DNA of 28,446 nt from a virus. Taxonomy: Duplodnaviria; Heunggongvirae; Uroviricota; Caudoviricetes. Made by a program: the position numbers and the translations under genes. Numbering within the stretch: position 1 is the first letter of the stretch; each line of letters starts with the position of its first letter. The stretch lies in IMG/VR virus record IMGVR_UViG_2622736468_000007; one strand, given 5' to 3'. Shown in pieces: positions 13,754-14,291 of the stretch. The notes beneath the pieces were generated by a model. That model was not told the DNA's origin. It saw nothing but the letters and a program-made list of their open reading frames with translations, and searched no databases.

Positions 13754-14014
13754 ATGGATTACACAAATCTACCAAAACAAACTTTTGCTGATTTAATCGC
13801 ACTCAGGCAAGCAGTCGTAGCTCTAATCAACTTGTTGCCGGAGAAGGAAAAGGAATTAGTTAAAGCGCTTCTTAACAGAACTGCCGCCGATTTTTCATCA
13901 TATCCACTGACAGATGACCTTGCGGACCTTCCTGAATTAATTGCAGCGTCCGCCATTAAGCTTACTGAAGAGATTTACCCTCCTCAAAAATCTTCACAAA
14001 ATTCCTGCGAGTAA
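13754..14014 (+). CDS. hypothetical protein, opposite-strand moron inside lysis cassette
   Basis: ATG at 13754 preceded by AGAGGTG; 86 aa helical-looking product; followed by an intrinsic terminator. Confidence 0.45.
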   Translation: MDYTNLPKQTFADLIALRQAVVALINLLPEKEKELVKALLNRTAADFSSYPLTDDLADLPELIAASAIKLTEEIYPPQKSSQNSCE

Positions 14015-14291
14015 CTTCAATGCAATAATCGTAAAACGCCGCAAACTGCTCATCGCGGCGTTTTTTTTCATCTTCAGAAGGGATCAGCACCGACAATTTT
14101 TTATTCAGATCAGCGACGCTGCCCTCCAGTTTTTCAATGGGCGATTCAATATCATCTTTTTCTGACCGCAATGCCGTCGGTGGCGTCTTCAGAGAACCAG
14201 TAATTCTTCCCGGTAGCTTTCCTTTGTAGGTTATCCACACATTCTGCGCCTCTAAAATTATGGGGCGCTTTTCCGGCGACTGCTCATCCCC
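13962..14291 (-). pseudogene. 3' part of the IS1-interrupted gene located between holin and endolysin
   Basis: Frame of ORF 13962..14240 stays open upstream to the IS1 junction and is in frame with the 5' part across the 9-bp duplication. Confidence 0.5.
14035..14068 (+). terminator. intrinsic terminator
   Basis: Stem AACGCCGC/GCGGCGTT with 12-nt loop followed by T8. Confidence 0.5.

Follow-up and report, generated by a model that had tools for sequence, protein, structure and literature searches.

A small opposite-strand gene in the lysis cassette of a Qin-like prophage, probably a moron-type transcription unit

An 86-codon open reading frame opposite to the lysis genes

The DNA analysed here, referred to as the window, is a stretch of 28,446 nucleotides (nt) from IMG/VR virus record IMGVR_UViG_2622736468_000007. 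It carries a lambdoid late region of Qin-like type with the late genes on the minus strand. Inside the lysis cassette an open reading frame (ORF) of 86 codons is located on the opposite, plus strand (ATG 13754–13756, TAA 14012–14014). A preliminary description of the window had interpreted this ORF as a moron, i.e. an autonomous unit of promoter, gene and factor-independent terminator located between genes that are adjacent in relatives (PMC3714127), with its own ribosome binding site (RBS) and terminator and inserted between holin and endolysin. The parts named there, namely the plus-strand ORF, its RBS and terminator, the minus-strand lysis cassette and a neighbouring gene split by IS1, were all found where they had been placed.

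The Shine-Dalgarno (SD) sequence AGAGGTG is located at 13744–13750 and, as read from the sequence, its GAGG ends 5 nt ahead of the ATG. The program-made ORF listing calls the same frame as 88 amino acids (aa) from an upstream in-frame GTG at 13748. Downstream of the ORF an intrinsic terminator is found on the plus strand (14033–14068). Its 10-bp stem starts 19 nt past the ORF stop and consists of the arms AAAACGCCGC (14033–14042) and GCGGCGTTTT (14055–14064), separated by a 12-nt loop and running into a T8 tract (14061–14068). The fold has a free energy of -14.6 kcal/mol (z = -4.0), and none of 200 shuffled sequences was equally stable. A consensus terminator scanner passed over the hairpin solely through its 8-nt loop limit. 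The 3’ end of the ORF overlaps the 3’ end of the convergent IS1-split gene (stop codon 13962–13964) by 53 nt. As to RBS, strong terminator and 3’ overlap, the preliminary description was accurate.

The length of 86 codons is by itself not above chance, since the window holds 40 ORFs of at least 100 aa. The ORF is raised above chance by its conservation across diverged loci. Profile searches, which had been proposed as a check, matched the protein over its full length to PHROG 2572 (E = 1.2e-53, residues 1–86 on profile positions 1–86 of 86) and added family members from Salmonella enterica. In RefSeq the protein is WP_001306174.1 and is listed as a “hypothetical protein” for CFT073 and for numerous further genomes. 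It is 100% identical to the copies in CFT073 and in phage 2H10, and elsewhere carries the labels “FIG00638659” (phage 2H10) and “DUF1823 containing protein” (PhiR12 phages). The gene is thus already catalogued as a hypothetical protein, and the kind of element is known from the moron concept.

DNA of the ORF was detected in 314 of 5,426 complete E. coli genomes. It also occurs in isolated temperate phages (2H10, PhiR63_1, the PhiR12 group and PhiR5_1), and carriers are described as inducible, plaque-forming phages. Carrier strains include CFT073 (uropathogenic), APEC O1, S88 (neonatal meningitis) and some Shiga-toxin-producing E. coli, in addition to Salmonella. ORF, RBS and terminator show no damage in the window and agree fully with the commonest allele.

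When 1.84 billion representative proteins were searched exhaustively with HMMER, diverged relatives of 89–95 aa were returned, and homologues in Salmonella prophages and metagenomes show 40–57% amino-acid identity. Among the six frames the annotated frame alone is stop-free in every homologue, and its BLOSUM score is the best or joint-best. Length differences between homologues are multiples of three and the position of the start codon is kept; the diverged homologues carry TAAGGA 6–7 nt ahead of the start codon, at the aligned position of the SD. For diverged pairs dN/dS amounts to 0.30–0.40 at a dS of 1.0–1.5, at which synonymous sites are essentially saturated. Because open frame, in-frame indels, start codon, RBS and dN/dS all point to conservation, we judge from these comparisons that the plus-strand ORF is a real protein-coding gene that has been under selection. 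Purifying selection on the gene in the prophages of E. coli and Salmonella is moderate. The G+C content across the ORF (0.42–0.44) is lower than in the endolysin gene (0.48–0.53), a modest gap that does not exceed the variation seen in other parts of the window.

One antisense frame has its wobble positions at those of the ORF. Such a frame often imitates conservation; it was considered as the true gene and rejected, as it contains two to three stops per sequence and has no conserved start. In this wobble-coincident frame the window has a 65-codon antisense ORF (13759–13956, minus strand) that starts 5 nt past the stop codon of the convergent gene. The compared loci L088 and L091 have comparable antisense open stretches, yet with other starts and lengths, and elsewhere stops occur across the ORF region. 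We judge the antisense ORF to be a likely by-product of the plus-strand coding sequence.

The convergent ydfR-like gene and the terminator hairpin

The gene converging with the ORF belongs to the YdfR family. Its N-terminal part (15069–15290, minus strand; DUF1327, PF07041 E = 9e-36) and its distal C-terminal part (13962–14291, minus strand) are separated by a 768-bp IS1 (14292–15059, minus strand) that is flanked by the 9-bp duplication CTCATCCCC at 14283–14291 and 15060–15068. Removal of IS1 and one duplicate restores an ORF of 183 aa. A search of the 5,426 complete E. coli genomes did not find the IS1 junction in any of them; the closest partial proteins bear the names Shigella flexneri and Shigella sonnei, so that the window may stem from a Shigella-like strain. 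The C-terminal part of the restored protein matches PHROG 2091 at positions 92–183. In RefSeq (PGAP) only the YdfR-homologous part is annotated, as a pseudogene “missing C-terminus”.

The last ~65 aa of the 183-aa protein resemble a 73-aa protein that is encoded by a late gene of its own in Salmonella and metagenome prophages. This late gene was located in L088 (1558–1779, minus strand) and L094 (6224–6445, minus strand). Its ATG overlaps the stop codon of Rz, and in L088 it has its own SD. The 73-aa protein is without a match in PHROG, and its gene is frequently overlooked by gene callers. The YdfR family as such combines a conserved N-terminal domain with a highly mosaic C-terminal half and occurs in forms of 103, 104, 114, 169, 183, 263, 268 and 297 aa. 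Residues 1–72 of K-12 YdfR reportedly bind RNase E’s catalytic domain, and the protein may bind RNA (2026 study, PMC13232886). What the split gene, the neighbour and not the ORF itself, shares with the YdfR family is the DUF1327 N-terminal domain; the domain reported to bind RNase E is present in the window gene, but this gene is interrupted by IS1 here. K-12 YdfR has 103 aa and abuts the endolysin gene, whereas the window version has 183 aa and a different C-terminal half, in which the terminator and the overlap are located.

The terminator lies within the convergent minus-strand coding sequence, where it encodes ...EKKRRDEQFAAF... A hairpin is present 20–40 nt past the stop codon in every locus of the ORF family, i.e. 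in the E. coli alleles as well as in the Salmonella and metagenome homologues, and the same hairpin also follows a different ORF on the plus strand in L098. Across seven loci, pairing holds at 97.9% of the stem positions and 6 of 8 pairs are invariant, while the adjacent ORF is ~75% identical. In L091 a G-C pair is replaced by A-U on both sides, a compensatory change whose support for conservation of the hairpin is suggestive rather than conclusive. The minus-strand version of the hairpin folds with -18.8 kcal/mol and is followed by just UUUUACGAUUAUU.

In L085 (strain SCU-387), which has no ORF on the plus strand, the hairpin lacks its right arm owing to an in-frame gap of 15 nt, and its left arm contains a substitution. 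Aligned with L085 near position 1520, this right-arm difference corresponds to window positions 14043–14057 and to five codons of the convergent gene. As the indel is in frame, the hairpin was gained or lost without breaking the convergent reading frame.

The interval between the ydfR-like and endolysin genes

The minus-strand late genes around the ORF comprise the antiterminator Q gene (17414–18166), a class II holin gene upstream in the late operon (essQ-like, 15295–15510; PF04971 E = 1.2e-32), the split ydfR-like gene, an endolysin/lysozyme gene (rrrQ-like, 13107–13640; PF00959 E = 4.4e-24; rrrQ in CFT073) that forms the left border of the slot, and an Rz-like gene (12613–13110; DUF2514). 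The position “between holin and endolysin” is correct with regard to the cassette and can be refined to the interval between the ydfR-like and endolysin genes.

We compared this interval with relatives that lack the ORF. In the Qin prophage of K-12 the stop codon of the 103-aa ydfR overlaps the start of rrrQ with nothing between them. In Sakai Sp6 a gene for a 114-aa YdfR-like protein is followed by a 50-nt spacer and the endolysin gene. The ORF is therefore an extra opposite-strand gene, as had been proposed. However, its arrival was not a simple one: in comparison to K-12 a 658-nt segment of the window stands in place of 93 nt, and on the opposite strand this segment also supplies the C-terminal ~110 residues of the YdfR-like protein. 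In SCU-387 a 297-aa YdfR-like protein fills the interval, and homology to the window ends at 14023, just past the ORF stop. On this comparison the ORF arrived by mosaic replacement, not by clean insertion, and the variable C-terminal half of the YdfR-like protein and the ORF would have been exchanged together or separately. The proposed insertion into the lysis cassette thus holds as far as absence from Qin and Sp6 is concerned; it does not hold as a clean event, as the ORF belongs to a mosaic segment that also supplies the ydfR-like gene with its 3’ portion, and the terminator of the ORF lies inside that gene.

The Salmonella and metagenome homologues occupy a second slot between Rz and the small terminase gene. 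There the homologue converges with the 73-aa late gene with an overlap of 59 nt, and the hairpin is located in the same reading frame of the convergent gene. L091 provides a third context, in which a K-12-like YdfR is extended by the same kind of tail. In all three contexts the 3’ end of the plus-strand ORF overlaps a minus-strand ORF by 53–59 nt, and the arrangement indicates that ORF, hairpin and tail of the convergent gene move as one unit.

The interval also accommodates other ORFs on the plus strand. In the window the 86-aa ORF of the Qin-like prophage (PHROG 2572) is preceded by a leader at 13641–13722. The same leader precedes an ORF of 104 aa (WP_000551290.1, PHROG 1853) in HUSEC2011 (O104:H4) and SCU-116 (L099, leader region 1201–1328), an unannotated ORF of 210 aa in 2012C-4606 (L098, leader region 1201–1330), which is the one followed by the same hairpin, and an ORF of 79 aa (WP_001168526.1) in a DLP12-like prophage (L104, leader region 1501–1634). 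Each of these alternative cargo ORFs has its own SD. A relationship of the 79-, 104- and 210-aa products to the 86-aa protein was not supported by hhalign (E = 0.05, 0.53 and 0.2 in three comparisons). The 104- and 210-aa ORFs had no Pfam match and no PADLOC match at E up to 0.01. Since the same leader precedes unrelated ORFs, and since at least 80% of the whole 76-nt leader is covered in 718 genomes versus 314 with the 86-aa ORF, the ydfR-like/endolysin interval is an exchange slot for small orphan genes with at least four different ORFs. The ORF of the preliminary description is accordingly one cargo of a multi-cargo hotspot.

The leader and a candidate promoter

Between the endolysin start codon and the ATG of the ORF there are 113 nt. 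The first part of the leader (block 1, 13641–13691, read on the plus strand) is the spacer upstream of the endolysin start and contains the direct repeat ATTTATCAGG/ATTTATCGG and a candidate promoter. The first 44–51 nt of block 1 are present in 2,245 of the 5,426 E. coli genomes, including prophages without cargo, and in Sakai Sp6 block 1 is the plain spacer from the ydfR stop to the endolysin start. A copy with 86% identity over 37 nt is found beside the Salmonella and metagenome homologues, where no endolysin gene adjoins. That this copy accompanies the Salmonella homologue without an endolysin gene following speaks for a role of block 1 on the plus strand.

The candidate sigma-70 promoter (13656–13684, plus strand) consists of a -35 hexamer TTTATC (13656–13661), a 17-nt spacer and a -10 hexamer TATGTT (13679–13684), which would place the transcription start near 13691. 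Among the candidates of six diverged loci, the one at the homologous position scores highest in five. We regard it as a weak candidate for the promoter of the ORF.

The second part (block 2, 13692–13722, plus strand) contains the inverted repeat CCAGTG (13698–13703) / CACTGG (13709–13714) with five intervening nucleotides and an outer CCTC/GAGG stem. It is confined to loci with cargo, among them L098, L099 and L104. Block 2 could be a stem-loop in the 5’ untranslated region or an operator. When we analyzed folding of the leader and a possible sequestration of the SD, z-scores ranged from -2.2 (block 2) to -0.4 and were not distinctive.

The encoded protein

The 86-aa protein is acidic (13 D/E versus 8 K/R), lacks a signal peptide as well as membrane-spanning stretches, and its predicted location is the cytoplasm. 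An AlphaFold2 model based on a 10-sequence alignment shows three helices (residues 8–26, 30–48 and 56–74; mean pLDDT 70, pTM 0.41), in line with the earlier characterization as helical. The C-terminal tail is poorly conserved and modelled with low confidence; the overlap with the convergent gene falls into this tail. The lack of a recognisable motif noted earlier was borne out by scans of Pfam and NCBIfam, in which nothing exceeded the threshold, and by the PADLOC-DB v2 defence models, which gave no match at E up to 1. At the locus itself Rfam returned sub-threshold chance matches alone and no known RNA family. As there is no family or structural match, a function is not assignable by homology.

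Several candidate relatives were rejected. Pfam ABATE scored 14 bits, which is under the cut-off. The label DUF1823 (PF08853) of the PhiR12 records corresponds to 13.2 bits and E = 0.11 against a gathering threshold of 25 bits; the best family member reached E = 0.024. AcrIIC4 (PDB 8hns, 7xvo) was the top sequence match in the PDB. It is likewise helical and of similar size (88 aa), but the sequence match is not significant (E = 0.54) and the fold search of the PDB with Foldseek did not return it. In the exhaustive search a 975-aa repeat protein (P0019) also appeared, which was judged to reflect similarity of repeated helices and not homology.

Interpretation as a moron-type unit and its alternatives

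Taken together, we consider the ORF to be probably a genuine small accessory gene that forms a moron-type independent transcription unit in the ydfR-like/endolysin slot of a Qin-like lambdoid prophage. Measured by the definition given above, it is an extra gene in an otherwise contiguous region, with the caveat that the 3’ half of the ydfR-like gene has been replaced too, and it is followed by a factor-independent terminator. The moron reading of the preliminary description is therefore largely right as regards the extra gene and its terminator; its promoter is just a weak candidate scoring at the median of shuffled sequence, and we infer promoter activity from sequence.

The unit might work as follows. 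In the repressed prophage host RNA polymerase would start at the weak sigma-70 promoter of the leader (-35 at 13656, -10 at 13679) and produce a transcript of ~380 nt that is antisense to the late operon and ends at the terminator. During lytic growth Q-modified polymerase arriving from the holin side would read through the hairpin. The product would be a cytoplasmic, acidic three-helix protein. Speculatively, it would most likely act by binding a partner protein (a host protein, a protein of an incoming phage or a late protein of its own prophage), to the benefit of the lysogen or the prophage. Such a protein-binding role would parallel that of other lysogen-expressed morons.

In phage lambda the gene bor is read against the late operon and adjoins the lysis genes, with Rz on one side and the terminase genes on the other. 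Like bor, and like morons generally (lom, HK97 gp15), the ORF is a single extra gene of the late region that is antisense to the late operon and has its own terminator, and the homologues in Salmonella are located in a slot of the bor type, from Rz to the terminase genes. In contrast, Bor is a secreted lipoprotein, whereas the 86-aa protein has neither signal peptide nor transmembrane segment and no sequence or structural relation to Bor. A further difference is that here the terminator is located inside the coding sequence of the neighbour, with the 53-nt overlap of both genes, and the promoter is a candidate only.

A number of observations weigh against a moron-type unit. The promoter score of 7.99 is no better than chance, the median best score of shuffled sequence being 7.76; the hexamers match at 3 of 6 and 4 of 6 positions, and a stricter consensus scan returned no promoter at the leader. 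Block 1 is also conserved upstream of the endolysin gene where no cargo is present; it may thus have been kept for the sake of the late operon or the endolysin gene, or mark a recombination flank. Covariation in the terminator stem amounts to one change, 76 of 500 shuffles do as well, and the stem is at the same time coding sequence on the minus strand. A strong T-tract (T8) is confined to the E. coli alleles, that of the Salmonella and metagenome loci being weaker. With regard to the protein, Foldseek of the model against PDB and BFVD returned nothing at E <= 0.001, and a literature search found nothing on the protein or its gene.

Furthermore, the comparison of recent copies (82 near-identical loci in 32 haplotypes, almost all on viral or prophage contigs) gave polymorphisms in the ORF at a ratio of ~2:7:7 by codon position; dN/dS versus L004 amounts to 0.6. 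A 2-nt insertion two codons ahead of the stop was found in 4 of the 82 loci. Constraint in the recent E. coli clade thus looks relaxed, and on this evidence some copies in cryptic prophages are drifting. The preliminary description had named absence or degeneration in close relatives as evidence against the ORF; it is conserved as a protein and most copies pass, about 80% of the 82 loci being fully intact, but the start codon is changed from ATG to ACG in 8 of them and one carries a nonsense mutation at codon 19.

We considered the alternative that ORF and convergent gene form a two-gene module, in which the 86-aa protein works with the ~65-aa C-terminal domain, e.g. as a lysogen-expressed inhibitor or partner, and in which overlap and hairpin couple expression. 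The convergent tails are homologous in the three contexts (EKKRRDEQFAAFY... / EQKRRDENEAALY... / ERQRHHENGVAFV...) and the hairpin is read in the same frame in each, in L088 the 73-aa gene is preceded by an SD of its own and its ATG overlaps the stop of Rz, and the 15 nt by which the hairpin arises leave the minus-strand reading frame intact. However, a domain similar to the 73-aa protein is present without the ORF in L085 (297 aa) and L098 (263 aa), and the pairing is therefore not obligatory. Co-inheritance over ~400 bp may be plain linkage, a 40-codon tail is open by chance ~15% of the time, and the overlap falls into that tail of the 86-aa protein which is poorly conserved and modelled with low confidence. 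We regard this module as rather unlikely.

In a more far-reaching version of the exchange slot, the spacer ahead of the endolysin gene in one large group of E. coli lambdoid prophages would be a hotspot dedicated to cargo exchange. Its parts would be a conserved antisense promoter and a stem-loop leader, followed by swapped ORFs (79, 86, 104 and 210 aa) and by a terminator in the convergent gene, and the 86-aa protein would be a lysogen-expressed effector of a new family. Such an effector could block superinfection, counteract host defence or modulate the interaction of YdfR and RNase E, and it could pair with the convergent C-terminal domain. We give this reading a small chance.

It is improbable that antisense transcription itself is what has been selected, with leader promoter and hairpin damping unscheduled read-through from the holin into the endolysin and spanin genes in lysogens and the ORFs being mere passengers. 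That the leader is commoner than any one cargo and precedes four unrelated ORFs, that the hairpin folds on the minus strand as well and that recent copies tolerate loss of the start codon would all agree with such a function. Purifying selection, a conserved start codon and RBS and in-frame indels are in contrast not expected of a passenger, and the SDs of the alternative cargo ORFs point in the same direction. In addition many prophages have the 50-nt block only and no antisense unit, and the promoter on which this explanation depends is the same candidate.

A decaying, non-functional frame in a cryptic prophage, conserved through recent kinship and known from automatic annotation only, is equally hard to believe: while substitutions in the close clade are not biased towards third positions, start, nonsense and frameshift variants exist and the family is tiny (a single locus, in an E. 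coli genome, in a one-genome-per-species scan of 185,579 representatives) with no functional annotation in the databases searched, homologues at 40–57% identity and a dS of 1.0–1.5 keep frame, start, RBS and hairpin, most recent loci are intact and the ORF is present in inducible, plaque-forming phages.

Should lysogens express the moron-type gene, a small orphan protein family would join the accessory genes that hosts receive from lambdoid prophages. The undescribed exchange slot in the lysis cassette would offer a compact place for functions in lysogenic conversion, exclusion and anti-defence. A terminator inside a convergent coding sequence places two overlapping constraints on one sequence. 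Current understanding is not overturned by these findings, as the element fits the established moron concept.

Other features of the window

The prophage in the window is decayed: in addition to IS1 it carries insertions of an IS3-family and an IS66 element, and its terminase gene is split. The large terminase (gpA) is distributed over two overlapping ORFs on the minus strand (3197–5298), one encoding the ATPase (4657–5298) and the other the remainder and the nuclease (3197–4660). This split suggests a frameshift and a defective prophage. The IS3-family element (5511–6724, minus strand) contains an ALIL frameshifting pseudoknot (Rfam match 6327–6443), and the IS66-family element (8090–10423, minus strand) comprises a transposase gene (8090–9628) and two small upstream ORFs.

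The lysis cassette is flanked by cspI-like and cspB-like cold-shock genes, upstream of which leaders of the cspA thermoregulator type (RF01766) were identified at 11977–12407 and 16200–16639, both on the minus strand. Another small late-region gene on the opposite strand is located just upstream of the holin gene. This ORF of 73 aa (15678–15899, plus strand) contains two CxxC pairs, and its positional counterpart in K-12 and CFT073 is ynfU, which encodes a putative zinc-binding protein. A strong Rfam match to the small RNA family IS009 (221 bits, 1336–1534, minus strand) lies in or next to the tail-fibre assembly gene (1302–1877) and close to a gene for a pin-type invertase (614–1204). The plus strand close to the right end of the window (25932–26951) codes for a protein of 339 aa that contains a DUF4365 domain.

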